This document shows, piece after piece, positions 2,165 to 60,564 of a stretch of DNA of 64,000 bases. The position numbers were made by a program, and so were the translations under genes. The notes under the pieces are model-generated. The model saw only the letters and a program-made list of their open reading frames with translations. It was not told the DNA's origin and did not search any database. The first letter of the stretch is position 1. The number at the start of each line of letters is the position of its first letter. Source of the stretch: Candidatus Omnitrophota bacterium (GTDB taxonomy: Bacteria > Omnitrophota > Gorgyraeia > Duberdicusellales > 4484-171); the NCBI GenBank assembly GCA_037146775.1, contig JBAWWL010000001.1, positions 133,464 to 197,463 of the forward strand. Reading direction: 5' to 3'.

Positions 2165-3832
2165 ATGAAGAATTTCTTACGGCGGCGCGCCTCAACAGAC
2201 CCCGCCTTTACTGCTATATTTTGTGCCCTAGTTATAACTTTTTCTCTGCTATTACCTTTTATAATTCGTGGCCAGAATATCCAGTCGACTGATAATAATG
2301 TGCCAGTTTACGGTGATACCATTGTTACGGGCACTAGTGCGGAGGCAAGCAACTTAATTCCTATGCTTTCTTCGGATAGCGCCTCTCATGAAATTTCAGG
2401 GATGATTTTTAATGGCCTGGTGAAATATGATAAAGACCTTACACTTGCCGGCGATTTAGCCCAAAATTGGGAAATAAGCCCTGATGGTTTGACTATCATT
2501 TTTCATTTGCGAAAAGGAGTGAAATGGCAAGATGGTGTAGAGGTAACTGCTGATGATGTTATGTTTGGCTACCGCACCATCATTGATGAGCGTACTCCTA
2601 CTGCGTATAAAGAAGATTATTTGCAGGTAAAAGAAGCCCGGGCAATAGACCGCTATACTTTTCGTGTCACTTATGAATTGCCGTTCGCACCGGCTTTAAG
2701 CAGCTGGGGAAGCCTTGTTGTTCTCCCTAAACATATACTTGAAGGAAAAATTATTACAAAAAATGATTTTTCCCGTAAACCAATAGGTAACGGACCGTTT
2801 AAATTATTAGAATGGATTCCTGGGCAGAGAGTTATCTTGGAGTCTAATCCGGAATATTTCGAAGGCAAGCCATACATTAACAGGTTTGTTTACCGTATTA
2901 TCCCAGACGTTTCTACTATGTTTTTGGAACTTAAAACCGGCGGGATTGATTGGATGGGATTGACGCCGCTACAATATAAAAACCAGACGGATACAGATTA
3001 TTTTAAGAAAAACTATAAAAAATTTCGCTACCCAAGCTTTGCCTACACTTACTTAGGTTTTAATTTCAAGCATCCTTGGTTCCAGGACAAGCGTATTCGC
3101 CAGGCGTTTGCTTATGCGATAAATAAAGAAGAAATTATAAAAGGGGTTTTATCCGGTTTGGCTACTCCCTCAACCGGGCCCTATGTTCCGAACACCTGGC
3201 CATATAATCCGGAAGTGAAAAAATACGAATTTAATCCCCAAAAAGCACAGGAATTACTTAAAAGTGCAGGCTGGCAGGATACTAACAGCGATGGTATTTT
3301 AGAAAAAGACGGCCGGCCGTTCGAGTTTACCATTCTTACGAATATGGGTAATACTTTAAGGATGAAAACCGCTACCATTATTCAGTGGCGGTTAAGTAAA
3401 ATTGGAATTAAAGTGCATATTAGAGAGCTTGAGTGGTCAACGTTCATCAATGAGTTTATCGACAAAAAACGTTTCGAGGCGGTTCTTTTGGGCTGGAGCA
3501 TTGGTCTTGATCCCGACCAATACGATATTTGGCATTCCAGTAAAACTAAAGAGAAAGAACTAAATTTTATCAGTTTTAAAAACGCAGAAGTGGACGAGTT
3601 GTTAGAGACTGGCCGAAGGACATTTGATATAGAAAAAAGGAAGAAAGCGTATTACCGTATTCAAGAGATTCTGTCGGAGGAATTGCCGTATATTTTTTTA
3701 TACGTTCCTGATTCTTTGTCGATTATCAGTTCGCGTTTCTATGGTATTGAGCCTGCGGCGACAGGCATTGGCTATAATATCCATAAATGGTATGTGCCAA
3801 AGAGATTACAGAAGCACGCAATAGAGAAATAG
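2165..3832 (+). CDS. oppA: ABC transporter substrate-binding protein, family 5 (oligopeptide/dipeptide)
   Basis: The ~555 aa product has an N-terminal hydrophobic signal and SBP_bac_5-like sequence throughout. Internal ATG at 2165 chosen over the ORF-track start at 2075. Followed by oppBCDF. Confidence 0.8.
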   Translation: MKNFLRRRASTDPAFTAIFCALVITFSLLLPFIIRGQNIQSTDNNVPVYGDTIVTGTSAEASNLIPMLSSDSASHEISGMIFNGLVKYDKDLTLAGDLAQNWEISPDGLTIIFHLRKGVKWQDGVEVTADDVMFGYRTIIDERTPTAYKEDYLQVKEARAIDRYTFRVTYELPFAPALSSWGSLVVLPKHILEGKIITKNDFSRKPIGNGPFKLLEWIPGQRVILESNPEYFEGKPYINRFVYRIIPDVSTMFLELKTGGIDWMGLTPLQYKNQTDTDYFKKNYKKFRYPSFAYTYLGFNFKHPWFQDKRIRQAFAYAINKEEIIKGVLSGLATPSTGPYVPNTWPYNPEVKKYEFNPQKAQELLKSAGWQDTNSDGILEKDGRPFEFTILTNMGNTLRMKTATIIQWRLSKIGIKVHIRELEWSTFINEFIDKKRFEAVLLGWSIGLDPDQYDIWHSSKTKEKELNFISFKNAEVDELLETGRRTFDIEKRKKAYYRIQEILSEELPYIFLYVPDSLSIISSRFYGIEPAATGIGYNIHKWYVPKRLQKHAIEK

Positions 3833-5736: not shown

Positions 5737-6705
5737 ATGAGTTTATTGAAAGTAAATAATTTAGAAGTTTCTTTTTTTACCGATGCCGGTGAGGTTAAAG
5801 CCGTCAGGGGCATAAGTTTTAGCTTAGAAAAAGGTAAAACCTTAGGGTTGGTTGGTGAAAGTGGGTGTGGTAAAACTGCTACCGCACTTTCCCTTGTACG
5901 CTTGGTGCCTTATCCCGGGCGTATTAAAGGCGGAGAGATATTATATAAGGGTAGCGATGTGCTTAAACTTAATGAGATAGAGATGCGTAAAATCAGAGGA
6001 AAAGAAATAGCTTTTGTTTTTCAGGAACCGATGTCGGCGTTGAACCCGGTATTTACCATAGGAGAGCAGATAGCAGAAGCTGTGATGTTGCATCAAGGGG
6101 TGGATAGCAAAGAAGCACTTACAAAAACCGCCGATGTCTTGGGCCGCGTTGGTATTGCTCAAACCCTCCGGCGCATGAAAGATTATCCGCATCAGCTAAG
6201 CGGAGGAATGCGCCAGCGCGTTTTAATTGCCATGGCGCTTGCGTGTAATCCGGCCTTGCTTATCGCGGATGAGCCTACAACTGCCCTGGATGTTACTATC
6301 CAGGCGCAAATAATCGAGTTAATCGGTAACTTGCAGAAAGAAATGCAGATGGCCATGTTGTTGATTACGCACGATTTGGGCATTGTTGCAGAAACTGTGG
6401 ATGAAGTAGCAATTATGTATAGCGGAAAGATTGTAGAGATTGCTTCATGCAAAGAACTCTTTCTCAAACCGTTTCACCCATACACCCAAGGGCTTTTGGA
6501 TTCATTGCCAAGAATCGAAGGCAGTCAAAGAATTCCGCTTAAAACGATAAAAGGTACGGTTGGCCAGCTGATTAATATCCCGCAAGGTTGCAGTTTCTAT
6601 GATCGATGCCCTCAGGCCAAAGATTCTTGCAGAGAGCAGGAGCCCGAACTTATTGAATGCAGGCCAGGACATAGGGTGGCATGCTATCTCTACGATCAGG
6701 ATTAA
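5737..6705 (+). CDS. oppD: oligopeptide ABC transporter ATP-binding protein
   Basis: Walker A GESGCGKT, signature LSGGMRQR, and a C-terminal oligopeptide_ABC Cys-rich extension. Confidence 0.85.
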   Translation: MSLLKVNNLEVSFFTDAGEVKAVRGISFSLEKGKTLGLVGESGCGKTATALSLVRLVPYPGRIKGGEILYKGSDVLKLNEIEMRKIRGKEIAFVFQEPMSALNPVFTIGEQIAEAVMLHQGVDSKEALTKTADVLGRVGIAQTLRRMKDYPHQLSGGMRQRVLIAMALACNPALLIADEPTTALDVTIQAQIIELIGNLQKEMQMAMLLITHDLGIVAETVDEVAIMYSGKIVEIASCKELFLKPFHPYTQGLLDSLPRIEGSQRIPLKTIKGTVGQLINIPQGCSFYDRCPQAKDSCREQEPELIECRPGHRVACYLYDQD

Positions 6706-14621: not shown

Positions 14622-14667
14622 GTATAGCATTGTTTGCGCGTGTAGTATATCCGCACGCTTCAAAACC

Positions 14668-14700
14668 GTATCCCACCCCCGGGGTGGGCTTTGGGTTGAG
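14668..14700. repeat. REP-like palindrome (cccacccccggggtgggctttggg), left of RAYT gene
   Basis: GC-rich perfect palindrome cccaccccc|ggggtggg followed by ctttggg. Matches the downstream copy. Confidence 0.6.
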
Positions 14701-14720: not shown

Positions 14721-15374
14721 ATGCGAAGAAATTTATTAGTTGTTGATAGCGTTTATCATGTATTTACCCGTAGTATCGCGGAGTTTAGGATATTTAACAA
14801 TGAAAATGAGTTCCTAAGAATGCTAGAGGCGATTCGCTATTATCAGCGAGAAAAACCTGAAATAAAATTTTCTAAATTTATACATTTGGAAGAAGGATCA
14901 CAACGTAACAAAAAAGAATCTTTTTCCGGCAAAGAAAAACTGATTGAAATAATAGCCTATTGTCTTATGCCCACGCATGTGCATTTAATCTTGAGACAAT
15001 TAAAAGAAAACGGTATATCGGTATTTATGGGCAATATTTTGAATAGTTACTCAAAGTATTTCAATACTAAGCACAAGAGGAAAGGGCCGTTGTGGGAAAC
15101 GCGTTTTAAGAGCGTTTTGGTGGAGTCCGACGAATATCTAATCCATTTAACCCGCTACATTCATTTAAATCCTACTACCGCTATGCTTATAGATAGGCCA
15201 GAAAATTGGAAATTTTCTTCATATCAAGAGTATCTGTCGCAAGCGAATGAAGATAAAATGTGTCGATATGATGATCTGCTGAATATAATTCCTCATTCTT
15301 ACAAGGAGTTTGTGGAAGACAGGATTGCATATCAGCAAGAATTGGAAAAAATTAGAAACTTTTTGCTTGAATAA
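14721..15374 (+). mobile_element. REP-associated tyrosine transposase (RAYT; IS200/IS605 Y1 transposase-like)
   Basis: N-terminal YHVFTR and HuH motif HVHLI (AYCLMPTHVHLILRQ) characteristic of the Y1_Tnp/TnpA_REP family. Flanked by matching palindromes. Confidence 0.65.
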
Positions 15375-15410
15375 CCAAAGCCCACCCCCGGGGTGGGCTT
15401 TGGGTGGGTC
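15375..15410. repeat. REP-like palindrome (ccaaagcccaccccc|gggggtgggctttgg), right of RAYT gene
   Basis: Perfect 15-bp-arm palindrome starting directly after the RAYT stop codon. Confidence 0.6.
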
Positions 15411-37234: not shown

Positions 37235-37382
37235 AGCATTAGCGTATTCCGGTGAAAGAGTCGGGTACCCGCGCTCACACTCAACGCGTGCCGTAAAAAA
37301 CACAAAAAGTAGTTGACAGCCATATGTAGTATGCATACAATTATATCTGTAGAGTATATATTCATATGCTAAAAGTATATAT

Positions 37383-39011
37383 TTGCAGATACAGATGAAA
37401 CCATTGTCAAAAAATACCATAAAACTCTTAAAAGTTTTTTACACCCACCCCCATCAACAATTTTATATCCAGGAGCTCGGAAGGATTCTCAAGGTTAAAC
37501 CAGGGGTTTTCCAGAGAATTCTTTATAGCCTCGAGAAAGAAGGCGTCCTCAATAGCGATTATAAAGCAAATGCTCGATTTTTCAGCATCAATAAAGATTA
37601 CCGTTTTTATAATGAGTTTAAAAGTATTGTCCGTAAGGCCGCCAATCTTGCGATTGCCGTTATTATCCTTAATGTTCTGTCGCTGGGCTTTGACAATTGT
37701 TTCGGGGAAGAAAAAAAATCAGAAACTCTGGCACTTTCGTCGCTCAATGATGCTATCGACATCGCGCTGAAGAATAATAAAGATATCAAGATACAAGAGT
37801 GTATGTTGAAAGTAGCAAATGCGGATATTTTGTATGCAAAAAGTGATTTTTTACCTAAGGTAGACTTGAATACCGGTTACACCCATAATGGCGCAGTGTT
37901 GAATGCTTCATCTCGTCCCGGCGATAAAAAAGATGTCAGGATATTTTCCGGATATAAAAACGATAATGCTCTTGGCGTAAACATAAACGAGATTGTGTAT
38001 AACGGCGGAGCCAATATTGCCGCCCTCCGGGAAACACAGCTTGGTTTGAAGGAGCAGATAGAAACTTTACGAGCCACAAAACTTAATGTAGAGTTAGACA
38101 CAAAAAGGCTTTATTATGGGCTTTTGCTTGCCTACGAAACGAAGCGTATTGCAGAAGATTTAGTAGAGCAGGCCCAAAGTCACTATGAAGAAGTGGAAAA
38201 TAATTTTAAACAAGGGACTTCTTCCAAGTTTGACGTGTTACAGTCAAAAGTGCAGGTTTCTTTGCTTATGCCGCAATTGATAAATGCCAATAATGCAATA
38301 GAGTTAATTATTGCGGAAATGGATAAATTGCTTGGCTTAAAAGTAGGGGGCGAGATAGTTATCAACGATAAACTGATTTATAACGCAATTGAAATAAAGG
38401 AAGAAGATTTTTTAAAAGAAGCTTATTCGAACGAACCGGAAATGATTTTAAAGTCTTTAGGTATAGATATGGATAAGTGGGCAATTAAATACGCAAGGGC
38501 CGGCTGGCTTCCTCAGGTAGGCGCAAACGCGGAGTATCTCTACAGATCCGGTAACATAGGGAATATGTTTAATAATGAACATGGCAATTGGAATATAGGT
38601 TTTTCGGTGCGTATACCTATATTTGACGGTTTCTCTACTAAGGCAAAGGTGGATTCTGCGAAGGCAAAATATGTTCAGGCAGTTATAAGTAAAGATAATT
38701 TAGCCGATCAAGTAGCCGTGGATGTAAAACAAGCGTGCCTTGATTTAGTAAAAGCAACTACAGTTATAAAGTCACAGCAAGACAGCCTGGAAGACGCAAA
38801 AGAGGCCTTAAAAATTTCCTATGTCCGTTACAATAATGGCGTAGGTATAAATCTAGACGTTTTAGACGCGCAAGTTTCTTTAGCTAACGTGGAAAAGAAC
38901 CTTGCCGAAGGTATGTATGATTATATTATGGCGAAAGCAAAATTAGATAGAGTAATGGGAGTAAGCAGCACAGAAGAAAAAAACTTGAGAGGCGGATTTG
39001 CGCAAAAATAG
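37383..39011 (+). CDS. TolC-like outer membrane efflux protein with an unusual in-frame N-terminal ~90 aa winged-helix-like extension
   Basis: Residues ~100-540 form two OEP repeats typical of TolC. The first ~90 aa (LLKVFYTHPHQQFYIQELGRILKVKPGVFQRILYSLEKEGVL) look like a wHTH regulator. No in-frame stop or obvious alternative start separates them. Confidence 0.6.
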   Translation: MQIQMKPLSKNTIKLLKVFYTHPHQQFYIQELGRILKVKPGVFQRILYSLEKEGVLNSDYKANARFFSINKDYRFYNEFKSIVRKAANLAIAVIILNVLSLGFDNCFGEEKKSETLALSSLNDAIDIALKNNKDIKIQECMLKVANADILYAKSDFLPKVDLNTGYTHNGAVLNASSRPGDKKDVRIFSGYKNDNALGVNINEIVYNGGANIAALRETQLGLKEQIETLRATKLNVELDTKRLYYGLLLAYETKRIAEDLVEQAQSHYEEVENNFKQGTSSKFDVLQSKVQVSLLMPQLINANNAIELIIAEMDKLLGLKVGGEIVINDKLIYNAIEIKEEDFLKEAYSNEPEMILKSLGIDMDKWAIKYARAGWLPQVGANAEYLYRSGNIGNMFNNEHGNWNIGFSVRIPIFDGFSTKAKVDSAKAKYVQAVISKDNLADQVAVDVKQACLDLVKATTVIKSQQDSLEDAKEALKISYVRYNNGVGINLDVLDAQVSLANVEKNLAEGMYDYIMAKAKLDRVMGVSSTEEKNLRGGFAQK

Positions 39012-39195
39012 TGCGGATATCTATCAAGTGGTGTAGGTACATAAAAATTTAGGATAAAGGGTTTATTAATTCACACTAGCATTTTTTCTTCGCGCCCGAG
39101 TGTTGTAAGAAATGCTGTATTCATTACCCCCTTGCCTCTACATATCGGCTTCGGGGTTAAATTTTCGCCTTCGGCGGAAAATTTAAGGAGGTAAA

Positions 39196-40032
39196 ATGAA
39201 AAAGAAAAAAAAGTTGATAATTATAGTCTTGATTCTGATTGCTGTAATCTCGGCAGCTGTTATTTTCATAGAGAAAGAAATAAACAGTAACATTAAAATT
39301 ATTAAGGTTTCCGGTAGTATTGAAGGTGATGAGGTACGCATTTCTTTTAGGGTGGCCGGCCAAATTACCGAGCTTTTGAGCGATGAAGGCATGGTAATAA
39401 AAAAAGATGATATTGTGGCCAGGCTCAATAAAGATGAATTGAGCAAGGTTAAGGCTGAGGCTGAAGCAGCCCTAAAATATGCAGAATACCAGTATAAGCT
39501 TGATTATGATGATTATGTGCGGGCGGAAAATCTTCTTAAAGCCGGGGCAATTTCAGCACAAAAGCGTGATGCTGCCAAGACCACCATGGACACCGATACG
39601 GCAAATATCAAACGTCTGTGTGCTTCCTTGGAATTAGCCAATACAAAATTAGGCTGGGCAGATTTAGCCAGCCCCCTTGACGGTTATGTCTTGGTAAAGA
39701 GCTCTTTAGCCGGCGAAGTGGTGCAGGCAGGCACGCCGGTTTTTACCGCCATAAACTTGGATGACCTATGGGTTACTGCTTATGTTAACGAAACTGACTT
39801 GGGCAAGGTGAAATTAGGGCAGAAAGCGCATGTGCAAACAGACAGTTATCCCAACAAGAAATATAACGGGTGGATTTCGTTTATCGCCAGCCAGGCAGAG
39901 TTTACCCCTAAATATATACAAACTACCGAAGAAAGGGTTAAATACGTCTATCGGATAAAGGTAAGAGTCGACAATTCCAGTCTTGACCTAAAACCCGGCA
40001 TGCCTGCGGACGCGTATATACATATTAAATAA
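39196..40032 (+). CDS. HlyD-family periplasmic adaptor (membrane fusion protein), YbhG-like
   Basis: N-terminal TM anchor, coiled-coil, and C-terminal lipoyl/beta-barrel motifs. AAGGAGG RBS. Confidence 0.75.
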   Translation: MKKKKKLIIIVLILIAVISAAVIFIEKEINSNIKIIKVSGSIEGDEVRISFRVAGQITELLSDEGMVIKKDDIVARLNKDELSKVKAEAEAALKYAEYQYKLDYDDYVRAENLLKAGAISAQKRDAAKTTMDTDTANIKRLCASLELANTKLGWADLASPLDGYVLVKSSLAGEVVQAGTPVFTAINLDDLWVTAYVNETDLGKVKLGQKAHVQTDSYPNKKYNGWISFIASQAEFTPKYIQTTEERVKYVYRIKVRVDNSSLDLKPGMPADAYIHIK

Positions 40033-40151
40033 TACAGATGACAGAAGACAGAAGTCAGATGACAGAAGGCGGAAGACGGTGGTAAAAATCGAAATCTGAC
40101 CTCTGATTTCTGACGTCTGACCCTTGACCTCTGCGCCTGGCCTCTGAAATT
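40033..40151. repeat. imperfect inverted repeat built from tandem heptamers (GACAGAA-like arm / TCTGACC-like arm)
   Basis: Left arm cagatgacagaagacagaagtcagatgacagaaggcggaagac, right arm atctgacctctgatttctgacgtctgacccttgacctctg. Fills the whole HlyD-ABC intergenic space. Same family as 57421..57680. Confidence 0.7.
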
Positions 40152-40913
40152 ATGATTACCATCAAAACCGAAAATCTCACCCGTAAATTTGGGGCATTAA
40201 CCGCTCTCGATCGCTTGAATCTACAGGTTCAGGAGGGGGAAATCTTTGGCTTAGTTGGACCAGATGGGGCGGGTAAAACTACTACCATGCGGCTTCTAAC
40301 CGGAATTTTAGACCCCACAGAAGGAGAGGCTTGGGTTTACGATAAACATACTGTCAAAGAGGCTGAACCGTTAAAAGAGTATATTGCCTATATGTCGCAA
40401 CGTTTCGGGCTTTATGAAGAATTAACGGTGCTGGAGAATATCCATTTTTACGCCGATATTTACGGCGTAGCCAAAGAGAACCGCGAGCCTGCTATTGATC
40501 GGCTGCTAGGGTTTTCCGGACTACTGCCTTTTAAGCAACGTCTTGCCGGGAAACTTTCCGGAGGAATGAAACAGAAGCTAGGCCTTGCCTGCGCGCTTAT
40601 TCATACTCCTAAGGTCTTATTTCTTGATGAGCCGACAAACGGTGTTGATCCAGTTTCTAGGCGGGATTTCTGGAATATACTTTACGACCTTTTAAAAGAA
40701 AAAGTTACTATATTTTGTTCTACCTGCTATCTTGACGAAGCTGAGCGCTGTGGCAGAGTCGGTCTAATGCATAAGGGTAAGCTTTTGCGCTGTGAATCTC
40801 CGGATAAAATAAAAAAAGAATGTAATGTTAAAACATTGGAAGAAGCGTTTGTGACGATAATTAAAGAATACGAAGCGTCAAATCCAAATGACAAAATCAA
40901 AATTTCAAAATAA
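40152..40913 (+). CDS. ABC transporter ATP-binding protein (ABC-2 type exporter ATPase 1)
   Basis: Walker A GPDGAGKTT, signature LSGGMKQK, Walker B LFLDEPT. Confidence 0.8.
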   Translation: MITIKTENLTRKFGALTALDRLNLQVQEGEIFGLVGPDGAGKTTTMRLLTGILDPTEGEAWVYDKHTVKEAEPLKEYIAYMSQRFGLYEELTVLENIHFYADIYGVAKENREPAIDRLLGFSGLLPFKQRLAGKLSGGMKQKLGLACALIHTPKVLFLDEPTNGVDPVSRRDFWNILYDLLKEKVTIFCSTCYLDEAERCGRVGLMHKGKLLRCESPDKIKKECNVKTLEEAFVTIIKEYEASNPNDKIKISK

Positions 40914-40939
40914 ATTTTGTCATTTGAGTTTTGTCATTT
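40886..40939. promoter_or_regulatory. perfect 13-bp inverted repeat (caaatgacaaaat / attttgtcatttg) spanning the stop of the first efflux ATPase gene, plus a third direct copy
   Basis: Seen directly. Half-sites are separated by 15 nt and lie 12-65 nt upstream of the second ATPase gene start. Confidence 0.4.
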
Positions 40940-40950
40940 ATCATTAAAAT

Positions 40951-41901
40951 ATGTCTACAGAAAACATAGCCGTAAGCGTTCAGGACTTAGAAAAAAAATT
41001 CGGAGATTTCATCGCCGTAAACAAAATCAACTTTGAAGTAAAACAGGGGGAAATTTTCGGGTTTTTAGGCCCTAACGGCGCGGGAAAATCTACTACCATC
41101 AGAATGCTCTGTGGCATAATTCCTCCTACTTCCGGAACGGGAAAAGTGGGCGGTTTTGATATTAGAAAAGAGCAGTATAAAATTAAAGAACATATCGGTT
41201 ACATGTCGCAAAAGTTTTCTCTCTATAACGATTTAACCGTAGAAGAAAATATTAATTTTTATAGCGGCATATATAAAATTCCGCAAAAAGAAAAAAAAGA
41301 ACGTTTAATGGCGGTCGTACGTAGCGCCGGATTAGAGGGGATGGAGAAGAGCTTGACTGTCACTCTTGCCGGTGGTTGGAAACAACGCTTAGCTTTAGGC
41401 TGTGCGCTCCTGCATCAGCCAAAAATAATTTTTCTTGACGAGCCCACCTCGGGCGTTGACCCTATCACCCGGGCTAATTTTTGGAGTATTATCAAACAGT
41501 TGGCCGCCCAGGGAGTAACAGTTTTTATTACTACCCATTATATGGATGAAGCAGAAAATGCAAACCGCATGGTTTTAATTTACCACGGCACGATTATTGC
41601 TTCCGGAACACCTAACGAGATGAAGACTAAGTGTATGAAGAATGAAGTACTTGAGGTTGTTTTGCCAAATGCTCAAGAGTGGCTTGAAAAATTAATCAAA
41701 GTAGAAGGCGTAAAGGAAGCAGCGCTCTTTGGGGCAAGCATCCATGCGGTTGTTTACGATAGCTCCAAGGCCATACCGACAATAAAAGAATTTTTGACAA
41801 AAGAGAAAATAGGAGAATTCAGAGTAGACAAAATTCTTCCCTCTCTGGAGGACGTATTTGTTTCTTCGATAGAGAATTACGATAACGACCATAAAGGGTA
41901 G
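40951..41901 (+). CDS. ABC transporter ATP-binding protein (ABC-2 type exporter ATPase 2)
   Basis: Walker A GPNGAGKST, signature LAGGWKQR, Walker B IFLDEPT. Confidence 0.8.
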   Translation: MSTENIAVSVQDLEKKFGDFIAVNKINFEVKQGEIFGFLGPNGAGKSTTIRMLCGIIPPTSGTGKVGGFDIRKEQYKIKEHIGYMSQKFSLYNDLTVEENINFYSGIYKIPQKEKKERLMAVVRSAGLEGMEKSLTVTLAGGWKQRLALGCALLHQPKIIFLDEPTSGVDPITRANFWSIIKQLAAQGVTVFITTHYMDEAENANRMVLIYHGTIIASGTPNEMKTKCMKNEVLEVVLPNAQEWLEKLIKVEGVKEAALFGASIHAVVYDSSKAIPTIKEFLTKEKIGEFRVDKILPSLEDVFVSSIENYDNDHKG

Positions 41902-41915
41902 AAAAACATTTTAAT

Positions 41916-43049
41916 ATGAATTTAAAAAGAATTTGTGCCATAGCCTTAAAGGAATTTGTCCAAATTAAACGCGATCCCCGCTCTTTGGGTTTAGCCATAG
42001 GGATTCCGGTATTTATGCTTTTGATATTCGGCTACGGCCTATCCTTAGACATTGACCATGTGAGGACTATAGTCTGGAACCAGGATGCTTCCTCGCAGTT
42101 TAGCCGCGATTTTTTGCTTAATTTTAAGAATTCCAAATATTTTAAAATAGTCGGCTACACCGATAACTACCGCGATATACAGCATATGATTGATAGCGGA
42201 GAAGTTTTGATGGCGTTGATTATCCCTAAAGAATTCTCGCGTTATCTTGAATCGGGCAAGCCCGCACCGTTACAGCTGATAGTAGACGGAAGTGACGCTA
42301 ATACTGCGACTATTTCGATGAATTATGTGCGCTCGGTAGTTGCAAAATATAATGTGGATTTATTAACCAGCACTTTCGCCGAGCATGGCTTAAAACCTCC
42401 CAGGTTAGTGGACGCCCGCCCCAGAATTTGGTTTAACGAAGGGTTAAACAGTACTTGGTTTATTGTACCAGGAGTGATTGCGATGATTATGATGATTATT
42501 TCATCGCTGCTTACGTCTATTTGTATTGCCCGGGAATGGGAAAGAGGCACCATGGAACAGCTAATCTCTACGCCCGTGAAAACTCCAGAGCTAGTTATCG
42601 GTAAATTTATACCTTATTTTGCCATCGGGCTCTTAGACCTTGCTATAGGAGTGTTTATGGCTAGGTTTTTGTTCGGCGTCCCTTTTAGGGGCAGCTATTT
42701 TTTACTTACTGTTTTGAGCGCGCTTTTTTTAACCGGAGCCTTGTTCCAGGGAATATTAATTTCTGTGGTTGCCAGGACCCAATTAATGGCCACTCAATTG
42801 GCAAGCTTAAGCACGATGATACCGACCGTACTCCTGTCTGGATTTATCTACCCGATTTTTAATATGCCCAAGTTTATTCAACCGTTCACTTATTTAATTC
42901 CCGCGCGTTACTATATCGTTATCTTAAGGGAGTTATTCTTGAAGGGTAATGGCATACAGACGATGTGGGATGAAGCGCTTTTCTTGCTTTTATTCGCTGC
43001 CGGAATGTTGGTTCTTGCGGTGAGGAGGTTTAGGAAGAAAGTCGCATAA
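41916..43049 (+). CDS. ABC-2 family permease (YbhS/YbhR-like)
   Basis: N-terminal TM helix plus large periplasmic loop, then a 5-TM ABC2_membrane core. Confidence 0.75.
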   Translation: MNLKRICAIALKEFVQIKRDPRSLGLAIGIPVFMLLIFGYGLSLDIDHVRTIVWNQDASSQFSRDFLLNFKNSKYFKIVGYTDNYRDIQHMIDSGEVLMALIIPKEFSRYLESGKPAPLQLIVDGSDANTATISMNYVRSVVAKYNVDLLTSTFAEHGLKPPRLVDARPRIWFNEGLNSTWFIVPGVIAMIMMIISSLLTSICIAREWERGTMEQLISTPVKTPELVIGKFIPYFAIGLLDLAIGVFMARFLFGVPFRGSYFLLTVLSALFLTGALFQGILISVVARTQLMATQLASLSTMIPTVLLSGFIYPIFNMPKFIQPFTYLIPARYYIVILRELFLKGNGIQTMWDEALFLLLFAAGMLVLAVRRFRKKVA

Positions 43050-43075
43050 AACACAGATTGCACAGATTAAAATAT

Positions 43076-43124
43076 AGATTACACAGATTTTAGAAAGATA
43101 GGGAAAAATAATCTGCGTAATCTC
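43076..43124. repeat. intergenic hairpin: agattacacagatt ... aatctgcgtaatct, with cacagatt direct repeats
   Basis: 14-bp imperfect arms with a ~20 nt loop between the two permease genes. The motif cacagatt occurs three times. Confidence 0.5.
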
Positions 43125-43134
43125 TTAAACAAAT

Positions 43135-44262
43135 ATGTTTGAAAGAGCAATAGCCATTCTCGTTAAAGAATTTAAACAGGTCTTCCGTGACCCGCGGATG
43201 AAAACGGTTATTTTCGTCAGTCCGCTTGTCCAAATAATTCTTTTTGGCTATGCGGCAAATAAGGATATCAATTACGTCCCTACGGCAATTTTAGACCGCG
43301 ATAATACCTACGAAAGCCGAGAGCTCCTGCGCCGTTTTACTTACTCCAAATATTTTGTACCCGAGCATTATATTAGTAGCGAACAAGAGCAAAATCGGAT
43401 TTTGGATAAAGGCTTAGCCAGTGTTGTTATCCATATCGACCGTGGCTTTGGCAGAAACCTTAATGCCGGAAAAGACGCAAACATACAGCTTGCCTTTGAC
43501 GGTTCAGATTCAAACACAGCAATGATTATAATGGGTTATGCCAATACTATCGCAACTAAATTTCAGTATGATTTATTAGAGCAGAAGATGGAAAGCCGCG
43601 GCTGGATGAGGTCTGGTGCTAACGTAGACTTAAGAGATCGCGCCTGGTTTAATGGTAATCTTATCTCGAGGGACTATTATCTTCCCGGTGTCATTGCTAC
43701 TATTGTAACAATGATGTCTTTATTGCTTACAGCTATGGCTATAGTGAAAGAGAAAGAAATCGGTACAATGGAACAGCTAATTGTCAGCCCCCTAAAACCC
43801 TTAGAGCTTATCATCGGTAAGCTCCTCCCTTTTGGCGTAATTGCGCTTGTTCAGATTGTTCTTGTTACTATTTTGGGAGTGCTTTGGTTCCATATACCGC
43901 TAAGAGGCAACTTGCTTTTGTTGTTATTGTCCGCGTGCATATATCTATTTACTACCTTAGGCATAGGCTTGTTTATCTCTACGATATCCGCTACCCAGCA
44001 GGAAGCAATGATGTCGGTTTTTCTTTTTTATATGCCTACCATGCTGCTTTCCGGTTTTGCTTACCCCATAGCCAATATGCCTCAGGTTATTCAGTGGTTT
44101 ACTATTTTTAACCCTTTACGTTATTTTTTAGTGATTATACGGGGTATATTCTTAAAAGGCGTAGGCCTTGATATTCTTTGGACCCAGCTGGTACCGCTAG
44201 TAATTATGGGCGTCTTGGTTATCAGTTTCAGCGCTTTGCGTTTTCGAAAAACTTTAGGATAA
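43135..44262 (+). CDS. ABC-2 family permease (YbhS/YbhR-like), second copy
   Basis: Same architecture as 41916..43049. Paralogous pair as in ybhS/ybhR. Confidence 0.75.
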   Translation: MFERAIAILVKEFKQVFRDPRMKTVIFVSPLVQIILFGYAANKDINYVPTAILDRDNTYESRELLRRFTYSKYFVPEHYISSEQEQNRILDKGLASVVIHIDRGFGRNLNAGKDANIQLAFDGSDSNTAMIIMGYANTIATKFQYDLLEQKMESRGWMRSGANVDLRDRAWFNGNLISRDYYLPGVIATIVTMMSLLLTAMAIVKEKEIGTMEQLIVSPLKPLELIIGKLLPFGVIALVQIVLVTILGVLWFHIPLRGNLLLLLLSACIYLFTTLGIGLFISTISATQQEAMMSVFLFYMPTMLLSGFAYPIANMPQVIQWFTIFNPLRYFLVIIRGIFLKGVGLDILWTQLVPLVIMGVLVISFSALRFRKTLG

Positions 44263-52649: not shown

Positions 52650-53099
52650 ATGTTAGAGGAAAAAATTTATAAAGATTACATAGAGGCGTTAAAAGCAAAA
52701 GACAAGCATAAAACTGTTTTCTTGAGCTTTATGCGGGCGGAGCTTAAAAACAGCGCTCTTGCGCTTAAGAAGGATAAATTAGAAGACAATGAAGTGTTGG
52801 CTGTTTTTAAGAAACAGAAGAAACACCTTGAAGAAACAAAAGAAACGATTTCTTCTTCCGGCAGGGTTGACGCCATTAGCGAAGTAGAGCGTGAGCTTTC
52901 TCTGCTTGACGAATACTTACCTGTATCGCTTTCCGACAGTGAGCTTACGGTGATTATTGATCAGGTGATAACCGAAATTGGCGCTACCTCGGTTAAGGAT
53001 ATGGGTAGAGTAATGAAGCAGGTTATGGCAACGGCAGGTGCCCGGGCAGACGCGAAAAAAGTAAGCGACCTGGTTAGAAAAAAGCTTGTCCCTGCCTGA
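52650..53099 (+). CDS. GatB/YqeY domain protein
   Basis: The N-terminal ~80 residues (…YKDYIEALKAKDKHKTVFLSFMRAELKN…) match the YqeY family; 149 aa. Confidence 0.65.
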   Translation: MLEEKIYKDYIEALKAKDKHKTVFLSFMRAELKNSALALKKDKLEDNEVLAVFKKQKKHLEETKETISSSGRVDAISEVERELSLLDEYLPVSLSDSELTVIIDQVITEIGATSVKDMGRVMKQVMATAGARADAKKVSDLVRKKLVPA

Positions 53100-53300
53100 G
53101 TTTTTTAATACCCTGACAGATAAATTTTTTTGTCGTGGCGCTATGGATAATACAAAAGCCGCTTTTTTAAAAAGCGGCTTTTTTTCTTTCTTCGTTGTCT
53201 TTTTTGCGAGTTATGGGGCATATCGCTTGAGCGCAAGTTTTTTTTGATTAGAAAGCCAATTTTCGTTATAATAAGGATCATGGACAAGAGGGTATTGCGT

Positions 53301-56004: not shown

Positions 56005-57558
56005 ATGAGTATAGAGAAATTAAACAAAATCAGCCAAAACTTTGGGTACCCTTTTCTGGAAACCAGCTTTCCTAAGCCATTGAGTATCAGAGAAATACTG
56101 GATAGTTTTGAGGAGAATAAGGAAGTCAGTGTTGCCGGCAGGTTGATGACCAAGCGGGAACATGGTAAGTCCGGCTTTGCGCATATCTGCGACCACACAG
56201 GTAAAATCCAGTTGTATGCCCAATTGAATATGCTCGGTAAATTGTACGAGCTTTTCAAGGATTTGGATATAGGAGATATTATTGGTATTAAAGGCAAGCT
56301 TTTTAAGACGAGAACCGGAGAGCTTACTGTAGCTACCGAGCATATAGTACTTTTATCAAAAACTCTGCGGCCTTTGCCGGAGAAGTGGCATGGTCTGAAA
56401 GATGTAGAGGTGAAATATCGCCAACGGTATCTCGACTTGATTGCCAACCAGGATACTAAAGAGGTTTTCATAAAGCGTTCCCGGATTATTTCTTTAACCA
56501 GAGATTTTTTTAATAATTTAAAGTACATTGAAGTAGAAACGCCGATGCTGCATCCGATCGCCGGCGGCGCCAGCGGCAGGCCGTTTATCACACATCATAA
56601 CGCAAACGATTTTGACGTATATCTGCGTATAGCTCCGGAATTATACTTGAAACGCCTTTTGGTCGGCGGGCTAGAAAAAGTTTTTGAGATTAACAGAAGT
56701 TTCCGTAACGAAGGTATTTCTACCCGGCATAGCCCCGAGTTCACGATGTTGGAGGCGTATTGCGCCTATGAGCATTATGAATACATGATGAAAGCGTGCG
56801 AAGATCTGTTTTCGTTATTGGCTAAGACCTTGCATGGTTCGCTCCTGGTGCCGTATCAGGGTGGGACGATTGATCTTACCCCGCCGTGGCAGAGAATTTC
56901 TTTCGCGCAGCTGTTTAAGGACGAGTTTGGCATCGAGCCGAGCGATTCACAGGAAATTTTCCTGGAAAAAATTACCAAGCGCTTGAATCTAACTGCCAAG
57001 GGTTTAAGCCGCAGCCAAATTTTAAATATCACGGAAGAATTGATTGAAAAACATTATCCCAAAGATAAACCGGTGTTTATCGTCGACTTTTTTACCTGGA
57101 CCTCGCCGCTGGCAAAAAAGAAAAAGGATAACCCTTATCTTGTCGAGCGTTTTGAGCTGTTTATCGCCGGGCTTGAGGTTGCTAACGCTTATTCGGAATT
57201 GAACGACCCCATAGAACAGCGTCAACGGTTTGAAAAGCAGCTTGAAGTCGAGGAAGAGCTTCCGAAAAAGATAGACAGCGATTTTCTCTTGAGCCTTGAA
57301 TATGCAATGCCTCCGGCTACGGGTTTAGGTATCGGTATGGACCGCTTAGTGATGATTCTGTTAAATCAACCCTCAATACGAGACGTAATCTTATTTCCGC
57401 TTCTCAAGCCTTTACAGGAGACGGAAAACAGAGAACAGGAGACAGAAGAAAAAGGGCAAAGAACAGAGGTCAACGGACAGAAGACAGAAGACGGAGGGCA
57501 GAAAACAGAAGGTAGAGGACAGAGGACAGAAGACAGAGGAGATAAGGCGGATTTTTAA
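56005..57558 (+). CDS. lysS: lysine--tRNA ligase (class II) with a ~45 aa C-terminal tail encoded by a heptamer-repeat element
   Basis: OB anticodon-binding N-terminus and class II motifs (…FRNEGIS…, …GLGIGMDRLVM…). After the conserved …DVILFPLLKP end, the frame continues through the GACAGAA repeats (QKTEDGGQKTEGRGQRTEDRG). Confidence 0.8.
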   Translation: MSIEKLNKISQNFGYPFLETSFPKPLSIREILDSFEENKEVSVAGRLMTKREHGKSGFAHICDHTGKIQLYAQLNMLGKLYELFKDLDIGDIIGIKGKLFKTRTGELTVATEHIVLLSKTLRPLPEKWHGLKDVEVKYRQRYLDLIANQDTKEVFIKRSRIISLTRDFFNNLKYIEVETPMLHPIAGGASGRPFITHHNANDFDVYLRIAPELYLKRLLVGGLEKVFEINRSFRNEGISTRHSPEFTMLEAYCAYEHYEYMMKACEDLFSLLAKTLHGSLLVPYQGGTIDLTPPWQRISFAQLFKDEFGIEPSDSQEIFLEKITKRLNLTAKGLSRSQILNITEELIEKHYPKDKPVFIVDFFTWTSPLAKKKKDNPYLVERFELFIAGLEVANAYSELNDPIEQRQRFEKQLEVEEELPKKIDSDFLLSLEYAMPPATGLGIGMDRLVMILLNQPSIRDVILFPLLKPLQETENREQETEEKGQRTEVNGQKTEDGGQKTEGRGQRTEDRGDKADF

Positions 57559-57680
57559 CTTCTGACATCTGACCTCTGATATCTGATATCTGACCTCTGA
57601 TTTCTGGTATCTGACACCTGACTTCTGACCTCTGACATCTGACCTCTGATATCTGGCTTCTGACATTTGGTATCTGCTCC
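57421..57680. repeat. large (~260 bp) imperfect inverted repeat: ~16 tandem GACAGAA-like heptamers, a ~19 nt spacer, then ~16 TCTGAC(C/A)-like heptamers
   Basis: Read directly from the sequence. The left arm is inside the lysS reading frame and the right arm is in the lysS-lolC intergenic space. A smaller sibling lies at 40033..40151. Confidence 0.75.
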
Positions 57681-57691
57681 CTGGATAATAT

Positions 57692-58846
57692 ATGAGAACA
57701 GAACTATTTTTAGCTCGGCGTTATCTTTTTAGAGGTAAAGCCAAACACATTTCTTTTATCGGCATTATTTCTTGTTGCGGAGTTGCCTTGGGTGTTGCGG
57801 CCTTGATCATTGTTATTTCCGTCATGAATGGTTTTGACCGTGATTTGATGGAGAGGCTGCTTAAATTCAACTACCATCTTAACATAGTAAGCTCTGAAGA
57901 AAAAACACTGCAGTTGACTCAGGAAGTATTGGCTCGGGAAAAAGGGGTGCAGTATACTTCTTTGACGCTCATGACGCAGGTTTTTGCAAAAATGGGAAAA
58001 TATTTTTATCCTTTATACGTTAAGGGAATTGACTTCAGCAATAAAAACGAAATGCACACATTTTTCCCTTATGTAAAACAACATTCCAAGGCCAACGGAT
58101 TCTTTGTCGGTGAAGGGCTCAAAATGAGGTTGTCTTTACAGGATAAGCTGGAATATTATCCTTTGGATAAAGCTTTTAAGCTAAAAGAAGAGGTTATTTG
58201 CGGCACGTTTAAAACCGGACTTTATGATATCGATAACTCTTATATTATCACCGATCTCGAAAAGGCAAAAAGCCTTTCACCGCACTATTCGTTGTCTTTG
58301 GGGGTAAAATTACAAGATCCTTATCGTGCCAATGCTGTGAGAGATATGTTGCGGAAAGAATTTGGCAATGATTTATATATCGGTACGTGGATGGACAACC
58401 AGGTGTTGCTTTCGGCATTGAAATTGGAGAAGCTTACCATGTTTGTATTGTTAAGCTTGATAACGTTAGTGGCCTCGTTTAACATTTTCGCTACGCTTAT
58501 GGTGAAAGTAGTTGAGAAAACCAAAGATATAGGAATTTTAAAAGCGCTGGGATTTACCAACAAAAGGATTTTGCTGGTGTTTAGCCTGCAGGGGCTGCTT
58601 TTAGGCTTCGTCGGCGTTCTCTTGGGTACTGGGTTGGGTTTGGGTTTGTCCCTGCTGCTGGCGAAATATCATTTCATTAAAATACCCGTGGATATTTATT
58701 ACATGGAGTATTTACCGGTTGCCATAAATTACCGCGATATAACATTTATTGGTCTGATAGGGCTTTTGTGTTCCCTGGTTTCAAGTTTGTTCCCGGCGCT
58801 GCGAGCTGCAAATTTCCAACCAAGCGAGGCGCTGCGCTATGAGTAA
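57692..58846 (+). CDS. lolC: lipoprotein-releasing system permease (LolC/LolE, FtsX-like)
   Basis: MacB_PCD-like periplasmic domain between TM1 and the C-terminal FtsX 3-TM bundle, 384 aa. Followed by lolD. Confidence 0.7.
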   Translation: MRTELFLARRYLFRGKAKHISFIGIISCCGVALGVAALIIVISVMNGFDRDLMERLLKFNYHLNIVSSEEKTLQLTQEVLAREKGVQYTSLTLMTQVFAKMGKYFYPLYVKGIDFSNKNEMHTFFPYVKQHSKANGFFVGEGLKMRLSLQDKLEYYPLDKAFKLKEEVICGTFKTGLYDIDNSYIITDLEKAKSLSPHYSLSLGVKLQDPYRANAVRDMLRKEFGNDLYIGTWMDNQVLLSALKLEKLTMFVLLSLITLVASFNIFATLMVKVVEKTKDIGILKALGFTNKRILLVFSLQGLLLGFVGVLLGTGLGLGLSLLLAKYHFIKIPVDIYYMEYLPVAINYRDITFIGLIGLLCSLVSSLFPALRAANFQPSEALRYE

Positions 58847-60456: not shown

Positions 60457-60564
60457 GTTGACATGCAAGACCTTAATAGCCCGTAAGAATTTTTGTTTTA
60501 CCTATTAACCTAACAACATAATAACCTAATAACATAGCAACCTAACCACCCAATAATTTATTTT

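Follow-up and report, generated by a model that had tools for sequence, protein, structure and literature searches.

The window considered here is a 64,000-nucleotide (nt) stretch of a metagenome-assembled genome, labeled Candidatus Omnitrophota in the NCBI protein records; its GC content is about 42%, and nearly all of its genes lie on the + strand. Within it, a six-gene efflux operon, recognized from the list of open reading frames (ORFs) and from Pfam, encodes on the + strand an OEP (TolC-like) protein as its first gene (37383-39011), a HlyD-type membrane-fusion protein of 278 amino acids (39196-40032; Pfam HlyD_D23 and HlyD_3), two ABC ATPases (ABC1, 253 amino acids, 40152-40913, Pfam ABC_tran; ABC2, 40951-41901), and two ABC-2 permeases (41916-43049 and 43135-44262). 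The subject of this analysis is the 119-nt gap between the HlyD-type gene and ABC1 (40033-40151), which divides into a left arm, a spacer, and a right arm, and which is one of two places in the window, 17 kb apart, where arrays of tandem heptamers face each other across a short loop.

In the first of these two copies, the left (5') arm (40033-40081, + strand) directly abuts the HlyD stop codon TAA (40030-40032) and holds seven GWCAGAR-type heptamers of the GACAGAA/GTCAGAT type (TACAGAT, GACAGAA, GACAGAA, GTCAGAT, GACAGAA, GGCGGAA, and GACGGTG). A 13-nt spacer, or hairpin loop (GTAAAAATCGAAA, 40082-40094), separates it from a right (3') arm of about eight TCTGAYN heptamers (40095-40151; TCTGACC, TCTGATT, TCTGACG, TCTGACC, CTTGACC, TCTGCGC, CTGGCCT, CTGAAAT, and a final T), whose last ~16 nt (CCTGGCCTCTGAAATT) run into the ABC1 start codon and resemble the same position in a related operon, L130, discussed below. 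That start, an ATG at 40152, is confirmed because all of the orthologues, which are 242-261 amino acids long, begin M(I/V/A)TIK. The left arm is purine-rich and free of stop codons in two of the three + strand frames; the right arm has stops in all three and no Shine-Dalgarno sequence. Tandem Repeats Finder places period-7 arrays at 40034-40077 and 40095-40133. A sequence-only reading of this DNA had described the gap as consisting of a GACAGAA-like arm, a spacer, and a TCTGACC-like arm, and this layout is confirmed. A weak promoter-like TTGACC-18-AATTAT match (9/12) within the right arm was discounted, its -10 element overlapping the ATG.

The second copy is much longer, with period-7 arrays at 57435-57540 and 57561-57676 in the same program. 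Its left arm (57427-57545, + strand), of about 17 GACAGAA-like units, lies inside the 3' end of lysS, where it encodes a low-complexity tail of the lysyl-tRNA synthetase LysRS of ~45 amino acids (..QETENREQETEEKGQRTEVNGQKTEDGGQKTEGRGQRTEDRGDKADF*); solved LysRS structures align only to about query residue 467-478 of 517, the tail being missing in these homologues. The loop (57546-57560) holds the lysS stop codon TAA (57556-57558), and the right arm (57561-57680), of about 17 TCTGAYM units, ends 12 nt before the ATG (57692) of an FtsX/MacB-type permease gene. This right arm contains four to five stops in each + strand frame and none on the - strand.

The heptamers are of the types GACAGAA/GTCAGAT and TCTGACC/TCTGACA/TCTGATA, and all four arms have a period of 7, the autocorrelation being 0.60-0.74 at lag 7 vs 0.1-0.25 at lags 6 and 8. 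The 14-mer GACAGAAGACAGAA, with up to two mismatches allowed, matches the window 12 times vs 0.20 expected from shuffled sequence, with 11 of the 12 matches falling in the two copies.

Folding of the arms and the same junction in related operons

Structure prediction, proposed as a check in the sequence-only reading, gives stable RNA hairpins for both copies, with energies of -35.1 kcal/mol in the first (z = -2.7) and -99.4 kcal/mol in the second (z = -7.1). The complementary strand folds about equally well. The arms are 73-81% complementary without being exact reverse complements, so that about five of seven positions pair in each heptamer (the CAGA/TCTG core plus one G:C). Since every in-phase (7-nt) register pairs about equally, at ~70%, the stem is generic and able to slip between registers rather than being one specific structure. 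Register-specific complementarity, as would be expected of a fixed structure or of templated co-growth of the arms, was rejected on the same grounds.

Other signs of selection on an RNA structure were likewise sought at this locus. On the transcribed strand, G·U oppositions occur as often as A·C ones, giving no strand-specific G·U signal. The Rfam 15 covariance models have no gathering-score match in the window, with only miRNA-hairpin matches of 17-20 bits (thresholds 85-100 bits) at E<=1. No terminator-like site or U run was called at 40033-40151, and no U run follows either copy. Neither register, G·U frequency, Rfam, nor a U tract thus provides evidence for a finely selected RNA structure.

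Comparison with orthologous operons, taken from the ABC1 protein cluster at an identity of at least about 90%, illustrates how this junction has changed among close relatives. In nine compact loci (L123-128, L134, L135, and L136), whose ABC1 proteins fall into four distinct sequences with 86-90% identity to that of the window, the HlyD stop and the ABC1 start are separated by only 2-3 nt in every case, and the genes of the whole operon overlap or nearly do so. The two closest relatives, in which ABC1 is 93-94% identical, have expanded gaps of 147 and 122 nt at the same junction. In the first of these (L129, also Omnitrophota, 93%), the gap contains an array of the form (AACGCAGATT)n/(AATCTGCG..)n, in which four copies of AACGCAGATT are directly followed by four of AATCTGCGnn; in the second (L130-133, 94%), it contains an array of the form (TCGTTTAGT)n...(TAACGAAAT)n. 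Both arrays are unrelated in sequence to the heptamer arms of the window. Copy 1 is therefore a lineage-specific insertion, given the 2-3-nt gap in nine orthologous loci and the unrelated arrays in the closer relatives.

Other junctions of the L129- and L130-type operons carry more paired arrays, with units of 8-14 nt, and all of the paired arrays of these operons fold significantly better than shuffled sequences. The operon of the window is similar in this respect. At the ABC1-ABC2 junction, a different paired array (40880-40950, + strand; fold -15.6 kcal/mol, z = -3.4) has AAATCAAAATGACA-type units within the 3' end of ABC1, where they encode the C-terminal tail of the protein, and TTTTGTCATTTGAG-type units filling the intergenic gap, with the ABC1 stop codon at the tip of the hairpin; the same array family is found at the ABC1-ABC2 junction in L130. 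Between the two ABC-2 permease genes lies another (43050-43134, + strand; fold z = -2.95), formed by four copies of CACAGATT, a spacer, and AATCTGCGTAATCT, and having a CAGAT/ATCTG core in common with 10-mer arrays of L129. Paired tandem-repeat hairpins thus accumulate at operon junctions in this clade, with the architecture recurring and the sequence not.

L129 shows two further peculiarities. A perfect palindrome, CCTGCCTGCCGGCAGGCAGG, is nested within two different paired arrays (~840-870 and 5815-5840), which suggests that hairpin elements insert into the loops of other hairpin elements. In addition, an ORF for a 112-residue GIY-YIG nuclease (2668-3006) lies between its OEP and HlyD genes and is absent from the window and the other relatives.

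A dispersed family of opposed heptamer arrays

The sequence-only reading had argued from two copies to a dispersed family, rather than coincidence, and had proposed a pattern search for paired arrays; that search supports the argument and reveals a family far broader than was supposed, extending across genomes, metagenomes, and viral contigs. In a scan of one genome per species, four consecutive TCTGAYN units were found at at least 120 loci. The matches listed come from more than 15 phyla, among them Acidobacteriota (many of them Pyrinomonadaceae), Verrucomicrobiota, Planctomycetota, Bacteroidota, Cyanobacteria, Nitrospirota, Actinomycetota, and Pseudomonadota, and some are from cultured isolates. 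A metagenome scan for the paired form, (ACAGARR)2 N15-45 (TCTGAYN)2, likewise returned at least 120 loci, vs a few expected by chance; in the typical member, a ~5-nt spacer separates about five GACAGAR units from about four TCTGACT units. In viral contigs, at least 120 loci match TCTGAYN x4 vs 24, 73, and 29 for three permuted control heptamers, so that the TCTGA type is the commonest of the heptamers compared there without being unique; one viral contig has paired (GAACGTC)n/(TTCGACG)n arrays. Other genomes and contigs bear several arrays each. A BLASTN search of copy 2 against plasmids, run with the low-complexity filter on, gave no match.

The two arms occur in a fixed order. Among 125 arrays with usable flanks, a CAGA-core array lies within 200 nt upstream of the TCTGA array in 23 cases and downstream in 2. 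As the arrangement with CAGA at the 5' side and TCTG at the 3' side reads alike on both strands, this bias is real, and it shows that the two arrays make up one element whose arms keep a fixed order. Neither the orientation of flanking genes nor local GC skew is linked to the polarity of the elements, which are found in both orientations and also between convergent genes. Members of the family stand close against genes. The left arm mostly begins within ~10-20 nt of a stop codon on the same strand, with the ORF at times reading 40-70 nt into the arm, and the right arm mostly ends 0-32 nt before a start codon on the same strand. At orthologous sites whose flanks are 70-100% identical, the element is kept while the number and sequence of its units differ. 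Considered against a MITE, which has defined terminal inverted repeats, a target-site duplication, and a related autonomous element, the arrays have edges that fade into the flanking sequence within about one unit. Growth from the hairpin center, considered as a mode of expansion, was dropped because this rapid decay of the distal edges is uninformative. Two arrays lying several kilobases apart in L114 and L075 were considered as possible distant arms of an autonomous element and proved to be separate intergenic arrays, with no coding element between them.

Unpaired arrays are seen as well. One IMG/VR contig (L306, 3300033076_001536) carries at least six unpaired (TCTGACC)6-9 arrays on its + strand, apparently between co-oriented genes (positions 61, 4179, 7698, 8378, 8992, and 12392). 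Two of them (4179 and 7698) supply, in the TGA of their first unit, the stop codon of the upstream ORF, and most of the arrays end ~10-30 nt before the next ATG, forming CT-rich leaders without a Shine-Dalgarno sequence.

Members of the family also occur inside conserved genes. In two species, the tRNA_SAD editing domain of the alanyl-tRNA synthetase AlaRS has 24-25 extra residues between the motifs VAIG and SREFCGGTH, encoded by a 72-nt element that sits in frame in alaS (L181, 10047-10118; L239, 7542-7613) between flanks that are just 70-74% identical. Other in-frame copies lie in the HATPase_c domain of a hybrid histidine kinase and in the linker of an aldolase/SDR (short-chain-dehydrogenase) fusion protein. 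In all three hosts, one right-arm unit has been changed to TCCGAC or TCCGTC, removing the in-frame TGA, a change that can be understood because 21 nt of (TCTGAnn)n are enough to bring a TGA into each frame. The opposite arm poses no such difficulty, as (GACAGAA)n is stop-free in all frames and encodes DRRQKTE. A peptide search for further in-frame hosts returned mainly short mis-called ORFs and so gives no frequency of insertion within genes. Indeed, gene callers render the arrays as "hypothetical proteins" of 40-80 amino acids. Perfect (GACAGAA)5 arrays appear in the annotation of Plesiomonas shigelloides (P0019, P0028, P0046, and P0049), and in one entry labeled E. coli (P0021), as small proteins, either hypothetical or of the "DUF874 family," that are probably such mis-called ORFs.

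Origin, possible effects, and alternative explanations

The explanation that we favor, if only modestly, is that the 119-nt gap is a copy of a dispersed opposed-heptamer repeat, (GWCAGAR)n-loop-(TCTGAYN)n, representing selfish or near-neutral hairpin-forming DNA rather than a conserved cis-regulator. This character is indicated by its insertion at a junction that is otherwise closed, by the breadth of the family, by the microsatellite-like variation of its units, and by its tolerance, or exploitation, of sites next to stops and starts and within genes.

How such an insertion might be accommodated in an operon can be proposed from the predicted fold. In the operon transcript, the element would fold as a long imperfect hairpin that slips between registers, and its base would pair the HlyD stop UAA (40030-40032) with UUA (40150-40152) overlapping the ABC1 AUG. 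The 119 nt would thereby be looped out, leaving stop and start adjacent, as they are in the relatives, and this looping-out would allow the insertion to be tolerated. The TCTGA arm provides TGA stops in three frames and, if melted, would act as a leader without a Shine-Dalgarno sequence. The CAGA arm, having few stops, could be read as a harmless C-terminal tail, as appears to be the case in lysS and ABC1. A Shine-Dalgarno scan finds a strong AAGGAGG before the HlyD-type gene and none before ABC1, ABC2, or either permease gene, so that these four genes probably depend on translational coupling. In two places, copy 2 and the ABC1-ABC2 junction, the upstream ORF extends across the entire left arm and ends in the loop; ribosomes translating it would unwind the stem and uncover the leader of the gene that follows. 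The likely net effect under this model would be to keep the coupling of the downstream gene lacking a Shine-Dalgarno sequence, or to make it depend on translation of the upstream gene. The stability of the mRNA may also be modestly affected. More tentatively, and with a clear preponderance of doubt, the family might be a previously undescribed mobile or self-propagating polar hairpin that moves across phyla without encoding a transposase. Its 5' arm with few stops and its 3' arm with stops in every frame would then allow it to settle from stop to start or in frame, and at operon junctions it would serve as a looped-out coupling device through which the downstream gene lacking a Shine-Dalgarno sequence is translated only as ribosomes come in from upstream.

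Several observations weigh against the view of the element as selfish or near-neutral DNA. A transposase, target-site duplications, and conserved termini were not found, and the HlyD-ABC junction itself shows no evident duplication. A further 13 kb beyond the window contained no more copies, leaving two in ~77 kb. Persistence of elements at sites where the flanks are only ~70% identical could mean that they are selected for, and the excess of the TCTGA type over permuted controls hints at sequence-specific selection. The stop-to-start placement of the unpaired arrays in the IMG/VR contig looks functional, and the unpaired array at 60500-60556, described below, likewise lies just ahead of a start codon. 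Finally, the idea of preserved coupling itself rests on a predicted fold.

The first alternative to be weighed, which we consider possible though unlikely, is that the gap holds a dedicated cis-regulatory RNA, such as an attenuator, an RNase III-type processing site, or a 3' stabilizer, that sets the level of HlyD and OEP relative to the ABC proteins; a structured attenuator or an mRNA processing or stability element was also the function suggested in the sequence-only reading. REP hairpins between malE and malF are known to set differing expression levels in this way. The stability of the predicted hairpins, the location of the element within an operon that has one strong upstream promoter-like site, and the persistence of some elements at orthologous sites despite the divergence of their flanks are all consistent with such a role. 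So is the presence of some paired hairpin array in all three relatives with an expanded gap, where structure rather than sequence could be what is kept. Against this, the element is missing from nine orthologous loci in which the genes stand 2-3 nt apart and is replaced in the two closer relatives, which leaves a conserved attenuator or processing element without support. The lack of a preferred pairing register, of a G·U excess on the transcribed strand, of an Rfam match, and of a U tract or terminator-like site at the element points the same way, as does the fact that members lie in either orientation to the neighboring genes and are also found inside ORFs and where genes converge.

A second alternative, less probable than the first, assigns the function to the single strand. 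UCUGAYN repeats might serve as a multivalent platform for a protein such as ribosomal protein S1 or a Csp-like or CsrA-like factor that drives or regulates translation of genes without a Shine-Dalgarno sequence, with the CAGA arm masking the sites. The distance of 0-32 nt between arrays and start codons would fit this idea, as would the absence of Shine-Dalgarno sequences from the downstream genes here, the six or more stop-to-start junctions of the viral contig spanned by unpaired TCTGACC arrays, and the abundance of the TCTGA type relative to permuted heptamers. Moreover, TCTGATA is one base from a rotation of TAACTGA, a heptamer for which such a role has been proposed (PMC4679880). The binding protein, however, is putative; arrays lie in both orientations to the adjacent gene start; entirely different repeats occupy the same junction in relatives; and the in-frame copies inside genes cannot be leaders.

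That the element is an intrinsic terminator or Rho loading site separating transcription units is very improbable. Its stem is long, its 3' arm is pyrimidine-rich with C exceeding G and is thus loosely rut-like, and many family members adjoin the 3' ends of genes, including those between convergent genes; yet neither copy is followed by a U run, no terminator-like site is called at 40033-40151, termination there would silence ATPase and permease genes that have no convincing promoter of their own, and the genes overlap in relatives. Two independent low-complexity coincidences or an assembly artefact, for which the low-complexity sequence and its metagenome-assembled source might be cited, are already refuted by the 12 pattern matches where 0.2 are expected, by the identity of the window to contig CAZTHQ010000013.1 of assembly GCA_964613555.1 and its exact match in the Logan assembly of run SRR12676968 (possibly from the same reads), by the hundreds of elements of the same architecture in independent genomes, metagenomes, and viral contigs, and by the strongly polar arm order.

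Among repeat systems already described, the closest in appearance are the TAACTGA direct repeats of marine Beggiatoaceae, some Cyanobacteria, and some Bacteroidetes (MacGregor 2015, PMC4679880), for which a functional role was argued from their placement before start codons. Like these, the arrays considered here are tandem 7-nt units, mostly intergenic and patchily distributed across phyla, that end a few nucleotides upstream of starts in contexts without a Shine-Dalgarno sequence. In both, the forward strand has stops in all frames and the reverse strand is open, and the units have a CTGA core in common, with TCTGATA one base off the rotation ACTGATA. With right arms that run directly up to the ATG at 40152 and to 12 nt short of the one at 57692, both copies are placed as forward TAACTGA repeats are, while orientation in the wider family is mixed. 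The differences are nevertheless substantial. The unit here is TCTGAYN/GWCAGAR, the host belongs to the Omnitrophota, and arrays are longer, reaching ~17 units per arm. Most importantly, the opposed arrays pair into a hairpin, whereas TAACTGA repeats are almost never inverted (one of 170 repeat sets in the BOGUAY genome, from an orange Guaymas "Maribeggiatoa"; PMC4679880).

Compared unit by unit, the heptamers of the window match neither TAACTGA nor the STRR1-3 sequences. The latter (CCCCAGT, TTGGTCA, and CAACAGT), described as a cyanobacterial feature and reportedly described by Mazel et al. in 1990, resemble the present family in being dispersed, non-coding tandem heptamers of variable copy number that are sometimes found in structured or expressed sequences; Vioque is said to have reported in 1997 that STRRs extend a helix of RNase P RNA. 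To our knowledge, the obligate pairing of a 5' CAGA arm with a 3' TCTG arm has not been described for them. REP/BIME sequences of enterobacteria are also dispersed intergenic hairpins that occur within operons and may stabilize upstream mRNA. Each REP is one 20-40-nt palindrome whose sequence is conserved and which has a cognate RAYT transposase, whereas the element here consists of variable numbers of 7-nt units, and the palindromes flanking the Y1_Tnp gene of the window (14721-15374), CCCACCCCCGGGGTGGG, are unrelated to the heptamer arms. Rickettsia palindromic elements, reportedly described by Ogata et al. in 2000, are conserved units of 100-150 bp confined to Rickettsia that occur between genes and in frame within them, adding a peptide without destroying the protein. 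The present family is likewise palindromic and has this in-frame trait, in AlaRS, the HATPase_c domain, the aldolase/SDR fusion, and the LysRS tail, but it is composed of modular heptamer arrays of variable length and extends across phyla. With this heptamer construction, sequence homology to the Rickettsia elements would not be expected. A search of the literature found no prokaryotic description of these repeat strings. The family is best filed under heptamer tandem-repeat DNA, which is known, with the polar, hairpin-forming paired form as the new part.

Intergenic heptamer repeats have long been noted, and left unexplained, in cyanobacteria and giant sulfur bacteria. The results extend this picture to heptamers with a CTGA/CAGA core in many phyla and in viral contigs, often as polar hairpin pairs, which can open operon junctions that are otherwise coupled and can sit in frame in essential genes such as alaS. 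For annotation, the arrays are a source of spurious proteins of 40-80 amino acids and of C-terminal extensions, and they may confound the prediction of operons and terminators. Plesiomonas shigelloides, a culturable gammaproteobacterium with perfect (GACAGAA)5 arrays, is a possible experimental system.

Other features of the operon and the window

The sole strong promoter-like site in the efflux operon, TTGACA-17-TACAAT (37313-37341), lies upstream of the OEP gene, and a TTGACA-17-TAYAAT site is common to the relatives L129 (~920-1011) and L130 (~840-915). It is followed by an AT-rich palindromic stretch (ATATGCATACAATTATAT..., within 37313-37382) that also occurs in L129 and L130; site and palindrome together are probably the operon promoter with its operator. 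Downstream of the OEP gene, the gap before the HlyD-type gene measures 184 nt in the window (39012-39195) and 413 nt in L130 (2629-3041), in each case filled by a chain of unrelated short GC-rich hairpins, while in other relatives the two genes overlap. Build-up of hairpins between genes appears to be general in this clade.

Elsewhere in the window, an unpaired tandem array of the ACCTAACA/ACATAACA type, with a period of 8, 16, or 24 (60500-60556), ends 8 nt before the ATG (60565) of a gene with a UVR motif (McsA-like), without an opposed arm or a Shine-Dalgarno sequence. A palindrome at 53149-53188, AAAAGCCGCTTTTTTAAAAAGCGGCTTTTTT, downstream of a + strand gene ending at 53099, looks like a bidirectional intrinsic terminator. 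The Y1 (IS200-like) transposase gene mentioned above (14721-15374; Pfam Y1_Tnp, E = 5e-10) has the same GC-rich palindrome, CCAAAGCCCACCCCCGGGGTGGGCTTTGG, on either side (14666-14694 and 15375-15403), an arrangement resembling that of RAYT and REP sequences. At the start of the window, the first ORF (1-1710; compare L502, 1-7866) is the 3' end of a giant protein gene, called at 45,085 residues in the source contig, that lies immediately upstream of the window.

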